Assembly (NCBI GenBank): GCA_028712255.1
Contig: JAQTQJ010000003.1
Location: 7,173-71,172 of the forward strand
Reading direction: 5' to 3'
DNA from: Candidatus Omnitrophota bacterium
Lineage (GTDB): Bacteria; Omnitrophota; Gorgyraeia; Gygaellales; Profunditerraquicolaceae
DNA: 64,000 bases
A program made the position numbers and the translations under genes. The first letter of the stretch is position 1; each line of letters opens with the position of its first letter. The notes under the pieces are model-generated. The model searched no databases. It was not told the DNA's origin and worked only from the letters and a program-made list of their open reading frames with translations. Shown here in pieces: positions 7,688 through 61,657 of the stretch.

Positions 7688-8038
7688 TTAATCGACTAAT
7701 TTCCCCTCGACGTGTCCTTTGTCGATAAGGAATTTTGCTATGATTTCCGCTACATCGTCAGCCAATGACTTCGCTGTAGTCTTGATATTCCTCATCTCGT
7801 CATACTCCCTACCTTCGATTCTGAACTCTTCGCCGGGCCAGTTGGGAATCTCGATATAGATCCCGCCCTGCTTAAAACACTTGGCTGTATAAACGACGAA
7901 ATACCCGGGCTTATCGCGATATTGGCCAGACCGATAGATTTCCTCTTCGTATTTGCATATCCGCAAATGCGTGGCCTGGTCTTGCCTGTAAATACCAGAC
8001 GGTAAACTTTCGGGGTTTTTAAGCTGTATTACTTTCAT
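7688..8038 (-). CDS. Hypothetical protein (part of the insert between the portal and protease genes)
   Basis: 116-aa ORF, tightly packed with neighbouring genes. Confidence 0.3.
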   Translation of the reverse strand: MKVIQLKNPESLPSGIYRQDQATHLRICKYEEEIYRSGQYRDKPGYFVVYTAKCFKQGGIYIEIPNWPGEEFRIEGREYDEMRNIKTTAKSLADDVAEIIAKFLIDKGHVEGKLVD

Positions 8039-9234
8039 ATCATCGATAAATAAATATCTTTTGTGTGCCTTGCGATTTCCTTCCAGGAATATCGCTTAGC
8101 TGTTTCTTTTGCCTGCCGTAACTTTTCTGGAACGGCTTTATGATTTCTGATAGCCTTAATCAAGCTCTCTGCGGTGGGCTCAATCAAGATCGCATTATCG
8201 TCATTACAAAATTCTTTCAAGCCTCCGGTGTTGCTTACTATCAAGGACGCTCCCAGGCCCATCCATTCCAGGGCGGTGATTCCAAACGGCTCGTGTAGAG
8301 AGGGCATAATCGCGATATCCGCAATCTTCATCAATTTCCACTTCTCCTCTTGAGGGCAAAAGTTAAGCCATTCGAAATTCGCGTATCGCTCCTTCATCTT
8401 CTTGATTTCATGGGTAAGCGGGTTGCATGGCTCCAATGTCGGCGAAAGGGCAGAGATCAAAACGAAATGATGGTCTTGTATTTGCCTGATCGCCTCCAGA
8501 ATCTGCCAGACCCCTTTGGTCGGGACCATGCGGCCCACGAATACCACCAGGGGCTTGTCGTATTTCCTTTTGAGTTCTTCGTCGTATTTAATGCCCTGCA
8601 AAAATTCGTAATCCACTCCGTTAGGCACCACTTCTATTTTTTCCTCCAGCCAGTACTCCTCCTGCATCGCCCGCTTGTAATACTCGGATACCGTCAACAG
8701 CTTATTGCACGAATACAAGGCCGAGCCCTCCTGCTGGATGTCATAAAGATAAAAGGGATCTTCGGGAATCCGCTCGTGGGATAAGAATAAATTAAGGTGA
8801 CAGGACAAAAGGACAGGGCATTTATACAAGGCCTTCAAATGCCTGACCACGCCCCAGAGGTTGGTATCGTGCAGATGGATCAGATCAAATCTCTCCCGGC
8901 CAAGAAAGGCGAGCGCGTTCTCGAGAAAAATATCATCCGTAATAATCTTCTGCAGAAACCCGACCCTGGTCAAAAGCTGGTTGGTGTTATAAACCTCTAA
9001 TAACCGGTAATGATTCGGCTCGTGTTTCCAATCCTCGGGCTGGACGCGCTTTTTCTTGTTTCCCATCAAATAAAGTCCGCCCTCCTGGGTGTAATAATCA
9101 GCGCAAATGAGCGTCAATTCTATGTCTTCGAATTTCCTGAGCCCATCGCATAAATAGCGGGTATGCACGCCCAGGCCACCGTTGCTATCGAACGGACTGC
9201 CATTGATAAACATGAGGATTTTATTTGTAGACAT
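8035..9234 (-). CDS. Glycosyltransferase, family GT4 (GT-B fold)
   Basis: 399 aa. The C-terminal half carries GT4 hallmarks: VVFVGRMVPTKGV...EPFGITALEWMGLGASLIVSNTGGLKEF. Confidence 0.7.
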   Translation of the reverse strand: MSTNKILMFINGSPFDSNGGLGVHTRYLCDGLRKFEDIELTLICADYYTQEGGLYLMGNKKKRVQPEDWKHEPNHYRLLEVYNTNQLLTRVGFLQKIITDDIFLENALAFLGRERFDLIHLHDTNLWGVVRHLKALYKCPVLLSCHLNLFLSHERIPEDPFYLYDIQQEGSALYSCNKLLTVSEYYKRAMQEEYWLEEKIEVVPNGVDYEFLQGIKYDEELKRKYDKPLVVFVGRMVPTKGVWQILEAIRQIQDHHFVLISALSPTLEPCNPLTHEIKKMKERYANFEWLNFCPQEEKWKLMKIADIAIMPSLHEPFGITALEWMGLGASLIVSNTGGLKEFCNDDNAILIEPTAESLIKAIRNHKAVPEKLRQAKETAKRYSWKEIARHTKDIYLSMI

Positions 9235-14796: not shown

Positions 14797-15391
14797 TTTT
14801 CACACCCGCGAATTGATTGATGATATAACGCAACTCCGCGTCTAACATTTCGCACATAACCTTCGGATCCTGTTGATACAATTTTGGCGCGATGTATTTC
14901 GGAAGCCGCAAAAAACCGGCCTTAATCCCTCTTATTTGATTCTTAACAATTGAAGCGTGATCCGCAAAAGGAATAAGTTCTCCTTCTTTCTGCTTCAGTT
15001 CAAGTTCGCTTAATTTAGCGCGGTTCTTGCGGTATTCGTTTTCCCAATAATCTTTGCTGCCGTCTTCGGGATTCTGCGAGGCATAGAACCATTTAAAAAC
15101 ATCGCTGACCTTAAAGCGTGAAATCTCGCCTGAAGCGTCCCGGATAACCGGCATTCCCTGTTTGATGTAACGCCGGACCATGCGGGGTGATTTTTCTAAG
15201 AATACTGAAATTGTTCCGAGGTCGACCGTCCCGTCAAATACATCGGTTTCTTTCTTCTGCTCGGATTTTTCAAACTCCTCGAGCTCCTTAAGCTCTTTGG
15301 CAGATAGTGTCCCCCGCTGGAGTTTCTCAACAAGAGAAATGTAGCGTTTCTTGCGGGCAATCTCTATTAGATTCTGACTTTTTTCATCCAT
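14765..15391 (-). CDS. Putative terminase small subunit / DNA-binding protein
   Basis: Immediately upstream of the large terminase. Contains an HTH-like segment (MVRRYIKQGMPV). The start is probably the internal MDEKSQ at 15391, giving an 8-bp overlap with the upstream gene. Confidence 0.35.
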   Translation of the reverse strand: MDEKSQNLIEIARKKRYISLVEKLQRGTLSAKELKELEEFEKSEQKKETDVFDGTVDLGTISVFLEKSPRMVRRYIKQGMPVIRDASGEISRFKVSDVFKWFYASQNPEDGSKDYWENEYRKNRAKLSELELKQKEGELIPFADHASIVKNQIRGIKAGFLRLPKYIAPKLYQQDPKVMCEMLDAELRYIINQFAGVKNGDKNSKSDS

Positions 15392-16691
15392 TACTATTTT
15401 CTCTATGCGCCTTTCTCCCCGAAAATTCTTCCCATCTTTTGACGGCCACGTCGCAAAAGATAGGCTCGATCTCCATTGCATAACAGCGCCTAGTTAACCG
15501 TTCTGCTGCAATGATCTGCGAACCGGAACCGCTGAACGGCTCGTAGCAGATATCTCCGGGTGACGTATGCACGCGCATAGGAATAGCAAATACCTCGGTA
15601 GGCTTAACCGTTGGATGATGCAGTCCGGGATTACGTTTCTTACCTTCCCAGTCCAGCTCCCAAACATCAGTATGATATTCAGGCTTCGTAGGATCGCCGG
15701 ACCGAAAGAAATTGACCATCCACACACTGCCGATAGATTTGTCCTTTGGCTTATAAAGCGGCTTTTTTCCTTTAACCCACATAAGAAGACAAGGCTCATG
15801 CCTCCACGAATAAAACGAATACGTTAATACTGCGCAAGGCTTCACCCAAATAATCTGCTGATGGACGAGAACTCCGAGATCATCGCAGATTTCATCAATC
15901 ATGCCTCTTCGTTTTGAGGCATGCCAAAGATAGAGCGCTGTGTTTTCTTTGATATGTTTAAGCCCCACCTCATAAAACTTTTTTATGAATTCCTTGGCAT
16001 CCGGAATGTCGACCTCATGATAAACACCGGACCAATCGTGACCGCCGGTAGGCCTATCAGCTCCGGTGTAGTCGACACAGTAAGGCGGATCAGTAGCAAA
16101 CAAACTTGCTTTCTCTCCAGCCATAAGCCTTGCAACATCTTCGTCGCTTGTAGAATCCCCGCAGAGAAGCCGATGATCACCTAATATCCAAAGGTCGCCT
16201 TTTTTAGTAATCGTCTCCTTGGGCGGTTCAGGAATATCATCCGGAAGCGTTTTGCCGTCGCCAATATTCTCAACACCCATGTCGCCAACGCTATCCCGTA
16301 AATTTTTGAGCCGAAGCGCAAGATAATCATCAGCCGCCTCTTTGCGCAGCCTCTCTAAAAGCGGAATAAGAGCCTGTGTCCACTGTCCGGCAATCTCCTG
16401 GTTATTAAGCGTGACATTCATTGCCTGCTCTTGAATTTCGTCAACGTCAACTATGATAGCCGGTGCGGTCTCAACGCCCTCCGCCTGCAAAATCTTATAC
16501 CGCTGATGCCCTGAAATGATATGCATATTGCGCTTATTTACCACCAATAGGTCCACATAGCCAAACTTCTCCAGGCTATGCCGCAGGCCCGCCAAGGCCT
16601 CGTTCGATATTTCCCTCGGATTATAAGGCGCCGGTTTAATTTCCGATATCTTTATGTCACTAATCGCAGGCTTAATATTGATTTTTGCCAC
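15384..16691 (-). CDS. ParB-like nuclease domain fused to a DNA methyltransferase (N6-adenine or N4-cytosine, DPPY motif)
   Basis: N-terminal ParB/Srx fold (ISEIKPAPYNPREIS...GHQRYKIL), a DPPY catalytic motif and a C-terminal FSGSGS SAM-binding motif. Confidence 0.75.
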   Translation of the reverse strand: MAKINIKPAISDIKISEIKPAPYNPREISNEALAGLRHSLEKFGYVDLLVVNKRNMHIISGHQRYKILQAEGVETAPAIIVDVDEIQEQAMNVTLNNQEIAGQWTQALIPLLERLRKEAADDYLALRLKNLRDSVGDMGVENIGDGKTLPDDIPEPPKETITKKGDLWILGDHRLLCGDSTSDEDVARLMAGEKASLFATDPPYCVDYTGADRPTGGHDWSGVYHEVDIPDAKEFIKKFYEVGLKHIKENTALYLWHASKRRGMIDEICDDLGVLVHQQIIWVKPCAVLTYSFYSWRHEPCLLMWVKGKKPLYKPKDKSIGSVWMVNFFRSGDPTKPEYHTDVWELDWEGKKRNPGLHHPTVKPTEVFAIPMRVHTSPGDICYEPFSGSGSQIIAAERLTRRCYAMEIEPIFCDVAVKRWEEFSGRKAHRENSNG

Positions 16692-16936
16692 GCATCCCTC
16701 CTTTTCCTAACATATTGACCCATATTGACTTAAATAATCAAAGGGACGCCCCGTTTTGCCCCGTAGGTGCCCATTTTCATTGACATTGACATCAATTTCT
16801 AAACCTACAATCACTGAAAGCCCGCGCCTCGCCCGACCCGCGCCGCACACCCGCCTGGAAGGACCCGCAAGCTTTCTTTTAAGCAATAACCAGAGTTATG
16901 CACAATTTCACAGCCTCTACTACTATCTTTTGTTAG

Positions 16937-17380
16937 TTATCTCTTGTTATATATCTCTTGTTCGGGTGACACACCGGTCACTACCTCTGGTGACACCTGT
17001 GTCACTACTCCAGTGACAGCCCTGTCACTGGTGACATCAATGTCACTACTTGGTTGTGGATAACTTTTCACTCCTGAAATATTAAGCAGCTTATAAATAT
17101 TCGGCTTACCCTTCTTCCTCTCAATCGCAACAGCCTTCAACCGCTCCAGCTGCTTTACTGCCCGCATGATCGTGCGCCGGGATACTCCGCAGTGATATGC
17201 CAATGTGGTAACAGACGGAAAACAGTCCTGCGCCTTAAAATTAGCGTAATAACAAAGCCATGAATAAACAGCAACGCCCATTGTCCCGGCATTCTCGCTA
17301 ATGAGTCTTAATGCTGCCTTATCTATCCAAAGGAATTTGCCGTCGCGCAAATCCCTGATATCTATCTTTTCGTTTCCCAT
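16937..17380 (-). CDS. HTH DNA-binding protein, candidate replication initiator (lambda O-like / replisome organiser N-terminus)
   Basis: N-terminal winged-helix/HTH (LAYHCGVSRRTIMRAVKQLERLKAV). The iteron array lies within its own coding sequence. Confidence 0.4.
   Translation of the reverse strand: MGNEKIDIRDLRDGKFLWIDKAALRLISENAGTMGVAVYSWLCYYANFKAQDCFPSVTTLAYHCGVSRRTIMRAVKQLERLKAVAIERKKGKPNIYKLLNISGVKSYPQPSSDIDVTSDRAVTGVVTQVSPEVVTGVSPEQEIYNKR
16966..17046. repeat. Four tandem dyad iterons GTGACA-N5-GTCAC (~20-bp period) inside the 3' end of the HTH gene, followed by an AT-rich region
   Basis: GTGACAcaccgGTCAC / GTGACAcctgtGTCAC / GTGACAgccctGTCAC / GTGACAtcaatGTCAC. Directly 3' of the array the direct repeat atctcttgtt occurs twice (16939-16962) in an AT-rich stretch. 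Confidence 0.6.
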
Positions 17381-17391
17381 AAAAATGCCTT

Positions 17392-17637
17392 TTAAGTGAA
17401 TACAAATTCGTACCAGGCCATCTTGCCTTTGAGGTTACGCTGGACGCATTCTTCTTTGCTTATTTTTCTTACTATGCCTCTGCGGACAAAATCCCTGACT
17501 GTTCTGTCGGCCCGGAGATAATAATTCTTAGTGCCAAAGGATATAACTTCGGCTTTAGAGAAAATTCTCTTTTGCTTACACCAGTTCAAAAGCTGCTTCT
17601 CCTTGGATAAGAATAAATCTCCCTGGCCATCATCCAT
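17392..17637 (-). CDS. Hypothetical protein
   Basis: 81-aa ORF in the early module. Confidence 0.3.
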   Translation of the reverse strand: MDDGQGDLFLSKEKQLLNWCKQKRIFSKAEVISFGTKNYYLRADRTVRDFVRRGIVRKISKEECVQRNLKGKMAWYEFVFT

Positions 17638-17643
17638 TGTTCT

Positions 17644-17826
17644 TTACCGCCTTCCAATGATTAAAATAATACCGATAAGGATCGACGAAATTACAAAGAG
17701 CCAAATCAGCATCCTTATGAATTCTTTTGGATCCTTGCCAAACGGCCGATTTGCCTCGGCAAGTTTATCGCGGTTATACCAGCTCAAGCCTTTATAGAGT
17801 TTATTTAGTCCCTGAGTAACTTTCAT
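17644..17826 (-). CDS. Small membrane protein
   Basis: 60 aa with one C-terminal hydrophobic helix. Overlaps its neighbour by 4 bp. Confidence 0.3.
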   Translation of the reverse strand: MKVTQGLNKLYKGLSWYNRDKLAEANRPFGKDPKEFIRMLIWLFVISSILIGIILIIGRR

Positions 17827-18098: not shown

Positions 18099-18115
18099 TT
18101 TCTTTGCCTCTATAT

Positions 18116-18148
18116 ATGTATACAGATTTTTTTCTTAAACTGTCACAC
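18116..18148 (-). promoter_or_regulatory. Promoter/operator repeat copy A (-35 GTGACA, 18-bp spacer, -10 TATACA)
   Basis: The 33-bp block atgtatacagatttttttcttaaactgtcacac is nearly identical to 19081-19113. It lies upstream of 17823-18098 on the minus strand. Confidence 0.5.
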
Positions 18149-18160
18149 CTCGTGTAAGAA

Positions 18161-18733
18161 TTATTTCAGGTAGTCCCTTAGTCCCTCCTTTTCAAAGAGT
18201 TCTCTTATCCGAGCTATCTCACGATGAATAATCATTCTATGTTTATTAAGCTGCCTAGAGGCCTCGCTGATAGTCAGGCCTTCTTCGCCAAGCAGCTTGC
18301 ATAATTTCTGTTGCTGCGGAGTAAGCTTCTGGTAAACTCTGGAAAGTTCTAACTTGAGTTCAGACTTAATTTGCGGCAGGACATCATCGCTTTCAGCGAG
18401 TTTGTCTTTTAAGGCAGGCTCATCTTCATTGTCATCAAAGGGTTCATCCAGGGATACGCTTTCGTAAAACGCCCTCCTTTTATCAGCATTGGCTTTCTCG
18501 GCAAGATTGATAAGCATATTCCTAACAACCTCAGCCATATATGTCCTTTTTGAAGCGCCACGTTTTGTATCGTAGCGATCGCGGACCTCAAGCCAGTGCA
18601 TAAGACATTCCTGCAATAAATCGTCCAATCCTTCACGCGCCAAATATGTGTGCTCTTTTCTGTAATCATTAATAACTTTCTTGGCAACTGCAATCTCCCA
18701 ACTCTCAAATAAACCTCCGTAATTGAGACTCAT
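18161..18733 (-). CDS. RNA polymerase sigma factor, sigma-70 family (ECF-like, regions 2 and 4)
   Basis: 190 aa. Region 2-like segment (RDRYDTKRGASKRTYMAEVVRNMLIN) and a C-terminal region-4 HTH (LTISEASRQLNKHRMIIHREIARIRE). Confidence 0.6.
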   Translation of the reverse strand: MSLNYGGLFESWEIAVAKKVINDYRKEHTYLAREGLDDLLQECLMHWLEVRDRYDTKRGASKRTYMAEVVRNMLINLAEKANADKRRAFYESVSLDEPFDDNEDEPALKDKLAESDDVLPQIKSELKLELSRVYQKLTPQQQKLCKLLGEEGLTISEASRQLNKHRMIIHREIARIRELFEKEGLRDYLK

Positions 18734-18849: not shown

Positions 18850-19065
18850 CTATTTGTGCCTTTTTACTTTCGTAAGATCATCGATTCCAAACAGCTCTCT
18901 TTGCGTTGGCTCTCTGCCCAGGATGCCGGTTAAAACTTTTATCACTGCCTCGCAGAGTTTTCTATTTCGCTGCTCTCTCTGTGAAGGCGAAAGGTTCTTC
19001 GCGTAAACCACCTGAATCCGGTCCCCGAATCGCTTATTAAAATCGCCTTTTATCCCTCGTGCCAT
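18850..19065 (-). CDS. Small hypothetical protein expressed from promoter/operator repeat copy B
   Basis: 71-aa ORF with GGGAG 8 nt upstream of the ATG. Confidence 0.35.
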   Translation of the reverse strand: MARGIKGDFNKRFGDRIQVVYAKNLSPSQREQRNRKLCEAVIKVLTGILGREPTQRELFGIDDLTKVKRHK

Positions 19066-19080
19066 ATTTGCTCCCTACAG

Positions 19081-19123
19081 ATGTATACAGATTTTTTTCT
19101 CAAACTGTCACACTCCTGTGACA
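19081..19123 (-). promoter_or_regulatory. Promoter/operator repeat copy B with the perfect dyad TGTCACA-ggag-TGTGACA overlapping the -35
   Basis: Same 33-bp block as copy A. The palindrome is at 19106-19123. Confidence 0.5.
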
Positions 19124-19235
19124 AATTGTTAAAAAAATCGGTATATACATATAGAGGCATCGATTCCTCTTGACTTGTAGGGGTTTTGTTATAGGGTTGG
19201 GGTGTCCAAAAAATCTGAAAGGAGGTGACTACCAC

Positions 19236-19652: not shown

Positions 19653-21419
19653 ATGATCATAAAACCTAAGACAGATAAAACAACCAACAAAAAACGATAC
19701 GTTATCTATACGCGCTGCTCCACTGACGACCAGGCCCAGGGAGACTTTACCACCTTGGACAGCCAGGCTTATCACTGCAAGAACTTGCTGGACGCCTTTG
19801 GATACGAGCTCGCCAAGATAGGCAACAAAGGCCGAATAGACGATGACGGATACTCCGGCAAGGATCTCAACCGGCCCGGCATCCAGACGATTATCGACCA
19901 TGTGCGTAAAGAAACTGCCCCTTTTGATGGAATAATCTTCTTCCGCCTTGACCGCCTAACCCGGAATACCCGTGACCTCTACTGGCTTATTGATCTATTC
20001 AACTCCAAAGAGATCTCTTTCGTATCCGTACGCGAGAATCTTGACAGCTCAACCGCCATAGGCAGAGTGGTCATTGGTATACTTGGGATCTTGTCAGCCT
20101 TTGAGCGGGAACTCACCGGCGAGCGTGTGAAAGCCTCTTGCATAGCGCGTGTTCGCCAAGGCAAGTGGGTTGGCGGGATGCTGCCTTATGGATATAAGCT
20201 TATACCAGACGGACAACCTCTGCCTAACGGCCGCCAGCCACACAAGATCGTCCTTGATGAGAAGACATCTCTCCATCTTAAAGCTATCTGGGAGATGGCC
20301 GCAGATAATAAATCGCTTACGCAGGTAGGTCTTGAACTACATAGGCGCGGGCTAAAAACTCTAAACGGCAAGGAATGGCGCAGACAGGTTATCTCAAGGA
20401 TCTTAAAGAATCCCTTCTATAAGGGCTACATCCAGTACAGCGGAGAGTATCATAAAGGCACTCATCCTCCAATTGTAGAGGAGTGGCTCTGGGAAAGGGC
20501 TAATAAGATATTGAATGCAAGACTCCCCGGCCACAACTTTGTGCAGAAGGAAAGATTCTACGAATACCTCCTAGCCGGTATCATTAGATGCGGCGATTGC
20601 GGAAGCCATATGGTCTGCAATTTCTCAGGTGGCCGTGGCCGGAGAAAGTTCTTTTATTATGAATGCAGCCGCTCCAAACAGGCCCTGGGATGCAAGGCTG
20701 CGCGCATCTCAGCAACCACCTTTGACAAAGCCATAATCGATTATTTCAGGCGGGCATCCAAGGACAAAAACATTATCATAAAGGCCCTTGGGGACGCAAT
20801 GCTTGAGTCGCAGGCAAAGCTTAAAAAGATAGAAGCGGATCTTAAAGAAAAGGAAGCCAAACTAAATGGCTTCCGGCACCAGGCCAATAAGCTGCTGGAA
20901 TTGGCCATGGGTAACACAGTAACCAAAGGCTCAACCTATAAAGACAAAATGGCCGAATTGGAAACTGAGATCGTAAAGCTGGAAGACGAAATAGACAAGC
21001 TGCAGGCCCAGAAGAGAGTCACCAGCATAAACGCCTCCTCCGGTGAGCTCGTATACCGTACCATGGGCTTTGCCATCCAGCACCTCGAAGATGCCCCTCC
21101 GGAAGCCCAGAAAAGCCTTATTCAGGCCTTGATTAAGGATATCTATGTCTATAGCGACCGGTTGGTAATCAATATGTATATTGATGAGCCGCTGGAAAGC
21201 ATCCTCCCCACCGAAATAGCCTCTACAAACGAAAAGCGCCCTACAGAAGCCTGTAAGGCGCTTGCATCCACTGTATCGCTACCCGGAGTTTCGGATAGTT
21301 GTCAACAATGGCTGCCCCGCTTGGACTCGAACCAAGATAGTCAGATCCAGAATCTGAAGTCCTACCGATTAGACGACAGGGCAAATGTGTTAGAAAGTAT
21401 ATCGTGGATAAAAAGTTAA
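19653..21419 (+). CDS. Large serine recombinase (phage integrase)
   Basis: N-terminal resolvase catalytic domain (YVIYTRCSTDDQ), a recombinase domain, a zinc-ribbon-like Cys cluster (CGDCGSH...C) and a C-terminal coiled coil. 588 aa. Confidence 0.85.
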   Translation: MIIKPKTDKTTNKKRYVIYTRCSTDDQAQGDFTTLDSQAYHCKNLLDAFGYELAKIGNKGRIDDDGYSGKDLNRPGIQTIIDHVRKETAPFDGIIFFRLDRLTRNTRDLYWLIDLFNSKEISFVSVRENLDSSTAIGRVVIGILGILSAFERELTGERVKASCIARVRQGKWVGGMLPYGYKLIPDGQPLPNGRQPHKIVLDEKTSLHLKAIWEMAADNKSLTQVGLELHRRGLKTLNGKEWRRQVISRILKNPFYKGYIQYSGEYHKGTHPPIVEEWLWERANKILNARLPGHNFVQKERFYEYLLAGIIRCGDCGSHMVCNFSGGRGRRKFFYYECSRSKQALGCKAARISATTFDKAIIDYFRRASKDKNIIIKALGDAMLESQAKLKKIEADLKEKEAKLNGFRHQANKLLELAMGNTVTKGSTYKDKMAELETEIVKLEDEIDKLQAQKRVTSINASSGELVYRTMGFAIQHLEDAPPEAQKSLIQALIKDIYVYSDRLVINMYIDEPLESILPTEIASTNEKRPTEACKALASTVSLPGVSDSCQQWLPRLDSNQDSQIQNLKSYRLDDRANVLESISWIKS

Positions 21420-58733: not shown

Positions 58734-58764
58734 TTATCCACAGATTTATGCAAGTTGTGTATAA
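58734..58764 (+). promoter_or_regulatory. DnaA boxes in an oriC-like region upstream of dnaA
   Basis: Perfect TTATCCACA at 58734-58742 and a one-mismatch box TGTGTATAA at 58756-58764. AT-rich surroundings. Confidence 0.55.
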
Positions 58765-58797: not shown

Positions 58798-60132
58798 ATG
58801 GTTGAGCTTATTAAGAATTGGGAAGAAGCACAGGTAGATTTAAAGACAAGGATGGGCGATACTATCTTTGCTACCTGGATAGCTCCGCTGAAGTTTTTAC
58901 CTCAAGATAACCACAGTATAAATCTTGAGGCTCCAGACCAATTTTTCAAAGACTGGGTAGAAAAACATTATCTTGAACTTATTCGGGATACCTTAAAACG
59001 TAAGGGCGTGGATAATCTGTTAGTAAAGTTAGTTGTCAGCACCGCTCAAAGCGATTTATCTATTCCTTCTAACAATGAAATCAGTATCAAGAACGCTCCA
59101 TCTGCTAGTTGTATCAATCTTAATTCGCGTTATACATTTGAAAATTTTGTTATCGGGGCTTCCAATAGGCATGCGCACGCCTATTCTTTAGCTGTAGCCA
59201 ACTCACCGGCTAAAACATATAATCCATTATTCATTTATGGAGGAGTGGGGCTGGGAAAGACCCATTTGATCCAAGCTATCTGCCATCAAATAAAAAACAA
59301 TAACCCAACGGGAATAAAAATATGCTATGTTTCGAGTGAAAAATTTACCAACGAGCTTATCGACGCTATAGCGCATCGTTCTACTAATGCTTTTCGCCAA
59401 AAATACCGCAACCTCGATGTCCTTGTTATTGATGATATTCACTTTATCGCAGGAAAAGAATCTACTCAAGAGGAGTTTTTCCACACCTTCAATACTTTAT
59501 ATGATGCTCACAAACAAATTGTATTCTCCTCAGATCGGCCGCCTAAAGAAATTACCAACCTACAGGAACGGCTGATTTCACGGTTTGGGTGGGGCCTGGC
59601 TACAGATGTCCAGCCCCCAGATCTAGAAACACGCGTGGCAATCCTAAAGAAGAAAATTGAACGTGAACCCGTCACGGTTCCCGATGATGTAATATTTTTT
59701 ATCGCTCAATTAATTAAAACCAATATTCGCGAACTAGAAGGCGCCTTAATCAGAACGATTGCCTATTCTTTGCTAGAGGAAGCTCCGGTTACCTTACAAT
59801 TAACTAAAGAGGTACTGAAAGACCTGCTCAAAGAACCTACAAAATTAATTACTGTAGATTTTATCCAACGCTGCGTAGTCGAGGAATTCGGAGTTTCTTT
59901 ACAGGACCTTAAAACAAAAAGACGCAACAAACAAGTTGTGCTTCCACGACAAATTGCTATGTATTTAAGTAGGGAATTAACGGATTTATCTCTCCCGGAA
60001 ATCGGAGAACTTTTTGGTGGCAAAGATCACACTACAGTTTTACACTCTTACAATAAAATCAAGGAAGAGATTATCCAAAACCCGGAGCTAAAAGGAAGGG
60101 TTGAAAAAGTTATTCAAGTTGTTAAACAGTAA
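58798..60132 (+). CDS. dnaA: Chromosomal replication initiator DnaA
   Basis: AAA+ Walker A GGVGLGKTHL, sensor motifs and a C-terminal DNA-binding domain. 444 aa. Confidence 0.95.
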   Translation: MVELIKNWEEAQVDLKTRMGDTIFATWIAPLKFLPQDNHSINLEAPDQFFKDWVEKHYLELIRDTLKRKGVDNLLVKLVVSTAQSDLSIPSNNEISIKNAPSASCINLNSRYTFENFVIGASNRHAHAYSLAVANSPAKTYNPLFIYGGVGLGKTHLIQAICHQIKNNNPTGIKICYVSSEKFTNELIDAIAHRSTNAFRQKYRNLDVLVIDDIHFIAGKESTQEEFFHTFNTLYDAHKQIVFSSDRPPKEITNLQERLISRFGWGLATDVQPPDLETRVAILKKKIEREPVTVPDDVIFFIAQLIKTNIRELEGALIRTIAYSLLEEAPVTLQLTKEVLKDLLKEPTKLITVDFIQRCVVEEFGVSLQDLKTKRRNKQVVLPRQIAMYLSRELTDLSLPEIGELFGGKDHTTVLHSYNKIKEEIIQNPELKGRVEKVIQVVKQ

Positions 60133-60273: not shown

Positions 60274-61368
60274 ATGAAACTTCGAGTAGAAAAAAATCAT
60301 TTAATTAGTGCAATTCAAGCTGTACAAAACATAATTACTTCAAAATCAGCTTTACCTATCCTTTCTAATATTTTAATTGAGACTCAAGGGGCACTTTTGC
60401 GCCTAACAGCAACAGATTTAGATATAGGAATAACCTGTGCAATTCCTGGGGAAATCCTGGAACAAGGTGCGATCACTATTCCAGCCAAGAGGTTTAGTGA
60501 TATAATTAAAGAATTCCCTTTGGATGTAGTTAATATTACTACTAAAAAAAACAACCAGGTGATTATTGATTCAGATATGTGTCAGTTTAAAATTATGGGG
60601 TTGGCTAAAGAGGAATTTCCAAAACTTCCTGAATTTAAAGATAAAAAAGTGATTAAGATTGAGCAGGGTGCTCTAAGACAAATGTTGTCATTAACCTCTT
60701 TTGCTTCGTCATTAGATGAAACGCGTTATGTTTTAAATGGTATTTTATTTAAAATTAATAAAGGAGTATTGGTTTTGGTAGCTACTGATGGTAAAAGGTT
60801 GGCGATTGCCGAGAGAAAATTGGTTGGAGTGGAAGTAGATATCGAAGTTAGTATAATTATTCCTATTAAAACAATCCAGGAATTAAATCGTAATCTTAAA
60901 GATATTGGAGATCTATCATTAGTGATTAGTAGTAATCAAGCGCTTTTTGATTTGGGCTCTGTTGCGGTTGTATCGCGGCTTATTGAGGGAGAATTTCCGG
61001 ATTATAAACAGGTTATTCCCGTAGCATCCGAAAATAAAATAAAAATAGAGCGCAGTCAGTTTTTGTTAGCGGTAAAGCGAGCCGCACTTTTGGCTACGCC
61101 GGATTACCAGGCGGTAAAGCTAGAGGTTTTTAAGAACAAGCTGGTTATTTCTAAGTCTACTCCTGATGTTGGCGAGTTTCATGAAGAGTTGGTAGTAGAG
61201 TATCAAGGAAAAGAGTTGGTGATTGGTTTTAACCCGGTTTATTTAATGGATGTTTTAAAGAGTTTAGATGAAGATGTTGTTAATTTAGAGTTAACCGATG
61301 GTGAAAAACCAGGAGTTATTCGTATTAGTGGCTATATTTATATAGTTTTACCTATGCGGCTTAATTAG
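60274..61368 (+). CDS. dnaN: DNA polymerase III beta sliding clamp
   Basis: Three-domain clamp, 364 aa. RBS GGAG before the ATG. Confidence 0.9.
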   Translation: MKLRVEKNHLISAIQAVQNIITSKSALPILSNILIETQGALLRLTATDLDIGITCAIPGEILEQGAITIPAKRFSDIIKEFPLDVVNITTKKNNQVIIDSDMCQFKIMGLAKEEFPKLPEFKDKKVIKIEQGALRQMLSLTSFASSLDETRYVLNGILFKINKGVLVLVATDGKRLAIAERKLVGVEVDIEVSIIIPIKTIQELNRNLKDIGDLSLVISSNQALFDLGSVAVVSRLIEGEFPDYKQVIPVASENKIKIERSQFLLAVKRAALLATPDYQAVKLEVFKNKLVISKSTPDVGEFHEELVVEYQGKELVIGFNPVYLMDVLKSLDEDVVNLELTDGEKPGVIRISGYIYIVLPMRLN

Positions 61369-61372
61369 AAAT

Positions 61373-61657
61373 ATGGAGCTTTTAAAAAAAACCCTAGATG
61401 AGGTTATGCGCGGGCTTGGTGTTAAAAAAAACAATTCCTCAGTCGGAGATCCTCAAGAATGGTTAAAAAAAGCCTTGACAAAGAAAGAGTTGCAGCATAT
61501 AAAAGTTAAATATTTCAATAAGGGAATGCTTGGTTTAAGTGTTGATTCTTCTGCTTGGCTGTATATTTTAAGCTTAAAAAAAGAAGAATTACTAGAAGGG
61601 TTAAAAAAAGAAAATTCCGGAATCAAAAATATAATTTTCCGTATCGGAGAAGTTTAA
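61373..61657 (+). CDS. dciA: DUF721/DciA-like small protein between dnaN and gyrB
   Basis: 94 aa with the ...GMLGLSVDSSAWLYILSLKKEELLEGL pattern typical of DUF721 proteins. Synteny is dnaN-X-gyrB. Confidence 0.5.
   Translation: MELLKKTLDEVMRGLGVKKNNSSVGDPQEWLKKALTKKELQHIKVKYFNKGMLGLSVDSSAWLYILSLKKEELLEGLKKENSGIKNIIFRIGEV

Follow-up and report, generated by a model that had tools for sequence, protein, structure and literature searches.

Features of the locus

We analysed a 64-kb stretch of DNA from Candidatus Omnitrophota bacterium (GenBank assembly GCA_028712255.1, contig JAQTQJ010000003.1, positions 7,173 to 71,172; hereafter the window). It carries a prophage integrated beside tRNA-Gln (21309-21383) and gltX, and the subject of this work is the candidate replication origin of that phage. 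The 3' end of a prophage gene encoding a 147-amino-acid (aa) protein with a winged helix-turn-helix (wHTH) contains four palindromes, next to an AT-rich tract and flanked by sites resembling those of the host initiator DnaA. The gene lies on the minus strand and the palindromes, here called iterons, are numbered in gene order. The features, in window coordinates, are as follows:

16896 to 16904, plus strand: proximal DnaA box, TTATGCACA (TTATNCACA class, 0 mismatches), pointing toward the trios 12 bp away
16905 to 16912, plus strand: weak tandem DnaA-box-like element, ATTTCACA (GAATTCACA in relatives)
16913 to 16916, plus strand: GC-rich 4-bp spacer GCCT, from the boxes to the trios
16917 to 16925, plus strand: three DnaA-trio-like triplets, CTACTACTA (3'-GAT-5' three times on the opposite strand)
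16924 to 16962, plus strand: putative AT-rich unwinding element, three tandem 14-bp repeats TATCTYTTGTT starting at 16924, 16938 and 16952
16937 to 17380, minus strand: gene for the 147-aa winged-HTH initiator-like protein (Pfam HTH_36; N-domain and linker only)
16966 to 16981: iteron 4, GTGACACACCGGTCAC, translated V-T-G-V-S-P
16990 to 17005: iteron 3, GTGACACCTGTGTCAC, read in the other frame, translated V-T-Q-V-S-P
17013 to 17028: iteron 2, GTGACAGCCCTGTCAC, translated S-D-R-A-V-T
17031 to 17046: iteron 1, GTGACATCAATGTCAC, translated S-D-I-D-V-T
17055 to 17063, minus strand: distal DnaA box, perfect consensus TTATCCACA, 8 bp from iteron 1

An earlier reading of the letters by themselves (the sequence-only reading) had placed four dyad units of GTGACA-N5-GTCAC in the last 35 codons of an HTH gene. 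The four units are indeed there, spanning 16966-17046, but the repeated unit is a 16-bp palindrome, GTGAC-N6-GTCAC, which in most copies reads GTGACA-N4-TGTCAC. The palindromes occupy codons 112-139 of the 147 (gene nucleotides 335-415), with start-to-start spacings of 24/23/18 by coordinate and 18/23/24 in gene order, and a repeat search recovered them as one family. Allowing up to one mismatch, they were the only four matches in the window, compared to 0.34 expected by chance, and none of 100 shuffles gave four or more. Note that the same DNA motif is read in two frames: iterons 1 and 2 encode SDxxVT, iterons 3 and 4 VTxxSP.

The AT-rich stretch that had been seen to adjoin the iterons was confirmed. 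The tract (16917-16962, 46 bp) has 26% GC, compared to 47% in the prophage part of the window, and by nearest-neighbour energy its 40-mer is locally the least stable duplex, ranking in the bottom 0.08% for stability within the prophage part. The direct repeat reported there is also real, although it occurs three times and not twice: TATCTYTTGTT is present in three copies with a period of 14, where 0.17 would be expected and none of 100 shuffles reached three. The copies at 16938 and 16952 extend over the last codons of the gene and its stop codon. The 14-mers may resemble the 13-mers of E. coli oriC (GATCTnTTnTTTT); we gave this likeness no weight.

A chromosomal-type DnaA module flanks the array

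The description of the site as palindromes plus an AT tract had captured its centre and overlooked what flanks it, namely host DnaA boxes and a DnaA-trio module. The perfect 9-mer TTATCCACA occurs twice in the 64 kb: once as the distal box and once upstream of the host dnaA gene (58734-58742, 56 bp from the gene), where it is accompanied by an inverted TTATACACA at 58756. On the other side of the array, the order of elements from the proximal box to the AT repeats is that of the basal unwinding system (BUS) of oriC. This consists of a DnaA box with at most two mismatches, commonly followed by a weaker box in tandem; a gap, about 4 bp long and earlier called the GC-rich region, with a box-to-trio spacing that peaks at 10-13 bp; and at least three DnaA-trios, 3'-[G/A]A[T/A]-5' with GAT most often, adjoined by an AT-rich element (Murray laboratory, PMC8287927). 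In the C. difficile example, 5'-CACCTACTACTATTACTACTATGA-3', the boxes come before and the DNA unwinding element (DUE) after (PMC7561715).

The array and its flanks are conserved independently of coding

These elements were compared across 56 related loci from viral, genome and metagenome collections, 45 of them unique; the complete Ca. Velamenicoccus archaeovorus LiM genome contributes two of the 56, both prophages. The encoded proteins come in a long form of about 242-281 aa and a short form of 139-148 aa, to which the window protein belongs. Across the 45 unique loci the array kept its exact 18/23/24 spacing and its GTGAC/GTCAC arms, while the centres of the palindromes varied, including by non-synonymous changes. 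In the short clade, pairwise identity was 0.66 at third codon positions of the N-domain (synonymous divergence, dS, of about 1, near saturation), 0.48-0.80 in the iteron centres and 1.00 at third positions of the arms. The arms, both DnaA boxes, the AT repeats and the trios scored 0.92-1.00, and identity fell to 0.53 directly beyond the proximal box.

Nor does this conservation follow the end of the gene. Short forms stop at three different codons, by GAA-to-TAA, by GAG-to-TAG or by a one-base shorter repeat period, and the AT repeats were kept in all clades whether coding or non-coding. In one locus (L055) the stop precedes the array, and everything from the array through the proximal DnaA box persists there as non-coding DNA. 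Judged by this pattern of substitutions, the repeats are a selected DNA element and not a peptide repeat. The proposal that they are merely a by-product of a repetitive VT/SD/SP linker, which the conserved VTSD..VVTPVSP motif of the protein alignment might suggest, is scarcely credible, being contradicted by the two-frame reading, the invariant arm third positions, the amino-acid-changing centres, the array past the stop codon in L055 and the predicted disorder of the linker.

A DnaA box was present at the distal place in 35 of the 45 unique loci and at the proximal place in 32. The distal box was invariant in the short clade, third codon positions included. A clade with 267-aa proteins has it in the opposite orientation (TGTGGATAA), coding for P-V-D-K and not S-Y-P-Q, and there is little to account for this apart from selection acting on the box. 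A distal DnaA box has been reported to function in either orientation (PMC6669920). The proximal box is non-coding in the short forms, the window included, and encodes L-W-I in the long forms. For the weak tandem element next to it, pairwise identity was 0.92.

The triplets CTACTACTA are unique in the window and had a pairwise identity of 0.95 in the short clade, and the variants seen in relatives (TTA, or extensions such as TTATTTTTT) stay within the trio consensus. Spacing from box to trio is 12 bp in the window and 12-13 bp in the relatives. The complete module, a box followed by a 12-13-bp spacer and at least three consensus trios, was found in 14 of the 15 truncated unique loci (including L055) and in none of the 30 long-form loci; it was thus exclusive to truncated forms.

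The recognition helix of the protein varied together with the palindromes. Loci L028 and L031, of a clade with the helix SGRTIAR, have the symmetric site CTGACA-N4-TGTCAG, while all clades with SRRT[IV]MR have GTGACA-N4-TGTCAC. This covariation supports the HTH protein as the reader of the palindromes.

The 147-aa protein is a shortened initiator-like protein

The protein matched Pfam HTH_36 (PF13730) over residues 37-81 with 49.1 bits, above the cutoff of 25, and its long relatives scored 50-58 bits. Its best PHROG matches were all phage replication initiators: phrog_270 (2.7e-11), phrog_8102, the 'O-like' phrog_391 and phrog_678 (at 3e-8) and the DnaD-like phrog_186. These matches cover only the N-terminal winged helix of families of 300-380 aa. 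Comparison with lambda O, which had been suggested as a check, did not make it a detectable member of that family (hhalign probability 1.3%, no Phage_rep_O match in Pfam); the Pfam family is HTH_36. Searches against transcription regulators stayed below threshold, with GntR at 25.2 bits (cutoff 27) and NCBIfam regulator models at 15-23 bits (cutoffs 60-275). There was no Rep_3 or RepA_N match in Pfam, and the Foldseek matches to the RepA_N structures 4pql, 4pt7 and 5kbj were weak and not significant (E about 0.02). An exact-sequence lookup of the protein matched no contig, and no relative above 35% identity was found among GenBank phages or PLSDB plasmids. A protein search returned 76 relatives, of which the named ones were Omnitrophota/Omnitrophica.

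An AlphaFold model of a long form gave a winged helix (residues 21-98), a disordered linker (101-149) and a confident helical C-domain (167-254), and the predicted disordered linker coincides with the part that encodes the array. The C-domain had no Pfam, PHROG or PDB-profile match, and Foldseek found for it only generic winged helices (E > 1e-3). The short forms are one clade nested in the long forms, sister to L041 (273 aa) and L014 (256 aa), and L055 (114 aa) is an independent truncation. When five long-form C-domains were searched by tblastn against the short-form loci and the whole window, the best match had E = 0.24. The C-domain was therefore cleanly deleted, not split off or frameshifted. 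The remaining N-domain is under strong purifying selection in the short clade (dN/dS 0.05 at dS about 1). On these comparisons, the 147-aa protein is a natural truncation of a predicted two-domain initiator of about 255 aa, with a wHTH, a linker and a helical C-domain; it is the linker that encodes both the iterons and the AT repeats, as in lambda O.

No helicase, loader, primase or polymerase gene was found in the prophage

The genes around the array are as follows:

19653 to 21419: large serine integrase
between the integrase and the early leftward operon: divergent gene of 136 aa
early leftward operon: 71-aa gene, extracytoplasmic function (ECF)-type sigma factor, and genes of 91, 60 and 81 aa; the HTH gene follows
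18161 to 18733: the ECF-type sigma factor (TIGR02937, 50.5 bits, cutoff 42.9)
after the HTH gene: ParB_N-DNA methyltransferase fusion, TerS, GpA-type TerL, portal, protease, major head protein and tail genes

The gene for the tape-measure protein lies at the window edge, and the left end of the prophage lies outside the window. Relatives keep the gene order, from the integrase through the small divergent gene, the 71-aa gene, the sigma factor, the 91-aa gene and a small gene to the HTH gene, the ParB-methyltransferase and the terminase genes. No helicase, loader, primase or polymerase gene was found in the early region, in the structural region of the window or, in related contigs, downstream of the tape-measure gene, where only tail genes follow. 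The observation that no helicase-loader gene adjoins the array thus holds for the whole phage part of the window and extends to the related contigs. A scan of the region for sigma-70 promoters and terminators gave matches at chance level, and Rfam had no match in 16400-17500.

Several neighbouring features deserve mention in their own right. The serine-integrase open reading frame (ORF) extends about 110 nt into the oppositely oriented tRNA-Gln gene, which probably contains the attachment site, and relatives share the gltX-proximal integration place. Between the 91-aa and HTH genes (17392-17826), the window and L034 carry about 300 bp that L003 and L012 do not have; this DNA includes the 81-aa ORF, which has no family match, and L003 and L012 have just a 38-aa ORF in its place. 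Directly after the candidate origin comes the gene (15384-16691) for the ParB_N domain fused to an N6/N4 DNA methyltransferase (phrog_498, E = 2.6e-104), which overlaps the TerS gene. Between the origin and this gene, at 16780-16872, lies a conserved GC-rich element that reads, on the gene strand, GGGTCCTTCC..GCGCGGGTCGGGCGAGGCGCGGGC..CAGTGAT, then TTGATGTCAATGTCAATG. It is also present after the stop codon of long forms, and in L035 and L037 an inserted gene parts it from the array. This element may serve the GpA-type terminase as cos, or it may be a late promoter or terminator. A glycosyltransferase-like gene (8035-9234, phrog_2170) lies within the head-morphogenesis module, with the portal/protease region on one side and the head genes on the other. 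Finally, about 37 kb from the prophage, the window contains the host genes dnaA (58798-60132), dnaN (60274-61368) and a DciA-family gene (61373-61657).

The early promoters must be read by a different protein

The hexamer GTGACA also occurs in two promoter blocks (at 18141-18146, and at 19106-19111 and 19118-19123), and it had been proposed that it links the iterons with control of the early promoters. The blocks are two copies of the promoter-like sequence GTGTGACAGTTTRAGAAAAAAATCTGTATACAT, one before the 91-aa gene (18099-18160) and one before the 71-aa gene (19065-19125). The latter bears a palindrome, TGTCACA-CTCC-TGTGACA, in which the orientation of the half-sites is swapped relative to the iterons. 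The hexamer is present as described, but the link fails: in L003 and L041 the promoter palindrome reads TGTCGC...GCGACA with the rest of the block kept, while the iteron arms are identical and the recognition helix nearly identical to those of the window. We thus rejected the idea that the iteron-binding protein also binds the early promoters. Since the promoter arms change independently of the iterons, a different protein must read the promoter element. This variation suggests a specificity determinant that co-varies with another phage protein, possibly the ECF sigma factor (18161-18733) or the product of the divergent 136-aa gene.

A probable lambda-like origin that would recruit host DnaA

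Taken together, we consider that the region of about 170 bp at 16896-17063 is probably the vegetative replication origin of an integrated Omnitrophota siphovirus, organised within a gene as in lambda and recruiting the host DnaA. As part of the same reading, the origin would probably lie in, and just past, the 3' end of its own initiator gene. The lambda-like architecture and minimal replication module of the sequence-only reading thus keep their core, now with strong comparative support, and lose the kinship with lambda O and the promoter link.

We propose that dimers of the 147-aa winged-helix protein bind the four palindromes, and that host DnaA binds both the distal box next to iteron 1 and the tandem boxes beyond the AT-rich tract. 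By analogy with the oriC BUS, a DnaA-ATP filament starting at the tandem boxes would cross the GC spacer onto the three trios and open the 3 x 14-bp AT element. Replication would then start at the array, with host factors loading the host helicase; the host encodes DciA beside dnaN. Opening by host DnaA and helicase loading by host factors would explain why the phage has no loader, helicase or primase gene. In the long-form relatives, which have no trios, the C-domain may do part of the job of the DnaA module.

There is also a more specific scenario, which we put forward tentatively. A C-domain presumed to recruit the helicase may have been lost, and a chromosomal-type DnaA module gained at the same place, so that host DnaA would melt the origin and the phage protein would serve as a specificity or architecture factor. 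If so, origin opening in this mobile element would have passed from Rep-driven to DnaA-driven, a natural example of such a switch.

Several points weigh against these proposals. They are built from sequence, and the host phylum is essentially uncultivated. Upstream of the host dnaA there are only two boxes, and neither the rpmH-dnaA nor the dnaA-dnaN spacer contains a recognisable BUS-like element, box cluster or trio run, so the phage module has no recognised host oriC with which to be compared. Shuffled windows each contain on average 0.65 matches to a relaxed BUS pattern, and the window has two further weak matches. Three trios are the minimum number reported as required, and the association of trios with truncation comes from only two independent lineages. 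Dependence on DnaA may not be general, given that the long forms have no trios and some clades no exact DnaA boxes. GC skew over 15-20 kb showed no switch at the array, a measure that is uninformative in a 30-kb phage transcribed mostly in one direction. Finally, a single winged helix without the C-domain has no demonstrated route to helicase loading.

Alternative explanations

It is also conceivable, although we think it unlikely, that the DNA is an origin for which the 147-aa protein is not a competent initiator. The protein would then be a competitor that binds the iterons, or the full-length initiator would be supplied in trans by a co-resident long-form prophage. As a competitor, it may block related superinfecting or co-resident phages, resulting in incompatibility or exclusion. 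In favour of this, the whole C-domain is gone with no remnant in the window, the strong purifying selection on the N-domain suits any DNA-binding role, and both strain LiM (L034 and L043) and a Tibet metagenome-assembled genome (L037 and L045) hold a short and a long form with the same iteron arms. No long form is present in this window, however, and the short clade is widespread and diverse (dS about 1), occurring in viral contigs and in prophages whose structural modules are intact. Moreover, the conserved DnaA box/trio module that it has gained suggests a working origin with a different helper. Note that in LiM the two loci are about 48 kb apart (CP019384); with both forms and the same arms in one genome, cross-talk, trans-complementation or incompatibility of the origins are possible.

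That the HTH protein is a transcription factor and the palindromes its operators, acting as an early-operon roadblock or attenuator or in autoregulation with no role in replication, seems improbable to us. The protein has weak matches to generic wHTH families (GntR, HTH_11, Crp-like), Foldseek returned mostly transcription regulators, and relatives are labelled 'ArsR family regulator' in the source collections. The regulator scores are nevertheless far below their cutoffs (22.6 bits against 212, for example), and the replication-initiator PHROGs score best. The sites are found at the 3' end of a gene rather than in a promoter, with conserved DnaA boxes, trios and AT repeats on their flanks, and the promoter palindromes vary independently of them.

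We give very little credence to the array being a packaging or partition site, either as accessory sites of a cos for the GpA-type terminase or as a centromere for the ParB_N-methyltransferase. A possible cosN does exist in the conserved GC-rich element 25-90 bp past the array, the TerL is of the GpA type, the next gene has a ParB_N domain and 16-bp palindromes recall parS. The fusion protein, however, showed no Pfam HTH domain, and this phage integrates by a serine integrase, which makes partition unnecessary. The array and the terminase genes are on opposite sides of the GC element, and the gene inserted between array and GC element in L035 and L037 indicates separable modules. Furthermore, the arrays co-vary with the HTH recognition helix, and a packaging or partition role would leave the DnaA boxes and trios unexplained.

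Comparison with known origins

An origin within its initiator gene is classic for lambdoid phages, so that the basic finding proposed here is expected biology in an unexpected phylum. What would go beyond the lambda precedent is a phage origin with the full BUS grammar beside its own initiator sites, in relatives that, with and without the C-domain, form a natural series in which the DnaA-trio module occurs only where the domain is gone. The literature searched contained no paper linking DnaA-trios to a phage or prophage origin, and this module, if real, would be the first DnaA-trio/BUS module reported outside a chromosome. If confirmed, it would provide a testable model for how small temperate phages without helicase, loader or primase hijack DciA-type host replication, would bear on the interconversion of Rep-dependent and DnaA-dependent origin opening, and would give a defined pair of origin and initiator to Omnitrophota, a phylum with almost no genetic tools.

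As in ori-lambda, there are four dyad initiator sites of 16-18 bp about two helical turns apart, spaced 20/24/23 at nucleotides 349-433 of O and 18/23/24 at nucleotides 335-415 here. Both arrays fall in the linker-coding part of the initiator gene, at nearly matching codon positions, with an AT-rich tract directly after them, and in both, transcription of the initiator gene crosses the origin; the long-form relatives also share the layout of N-domain, linker and C-domain. In contrast with lambda, there is no detectable homology to O and no P-like loader gene. The window protein has no C-domain, the gene ending just past the array with that domain lost, and conserved DnaA boxes and trios flank the array. 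DnaA boxes and DnaA-trios are not known to be part of the ori-lambda core.

In RepA_N plasmids, too, the origin lies within the rep gene, in its central portion. In these replicons, and in the RepA of the Vibrio PLE satellite, an N-terminal DNA-binding domain binds repeats as a dimer, as we propose here, but they have not been reported with flanking DnaA-box/trio modules.

The iteron plasmids (Rep_3-type: RK2 oriV, pSC101, P1 oriR, F) share with the window the combination of Rep repeats, DnaA boxes and an AT element built from short tandem repeats. Their Reps contain two winged-helix domains and bind, as monomers, iterons that are direct repeats. Here, by contrast, there is one wHTH, the sites are palindromes and not direct repeats, and the origin would be inside the rep gene; a single wHTH facing palindromes implies dimers. 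In the plasmids, DnaA assists the initiator encoded by the element, and the AT element of RK2 consists of four 13-mers (PMC10797057). The same 2024 review states that there are no data for an interaction of DnaA with the single-stranded DUE of plasmids (PMC10797057), whereas here a consensus trio run abuts the DnaA boxes.

The segment 16896-16962 has its parallel in the oriC BUS. The upstream box of the tandem pair is the stronger one and lies 12 bp from the first trio, compared to a reported peak of 10-13 bp, and a 4-bp GC-rich gap, three 3'-GAT-5' trios and then an AT-rich element follow. Unlike the BUS of oriC, the module is phage-borne, has the minimum number of trios and binds DnaA by prediction only; and on the other side of its putative unwinding element lie the phage initiator sites and a further DnaA box.

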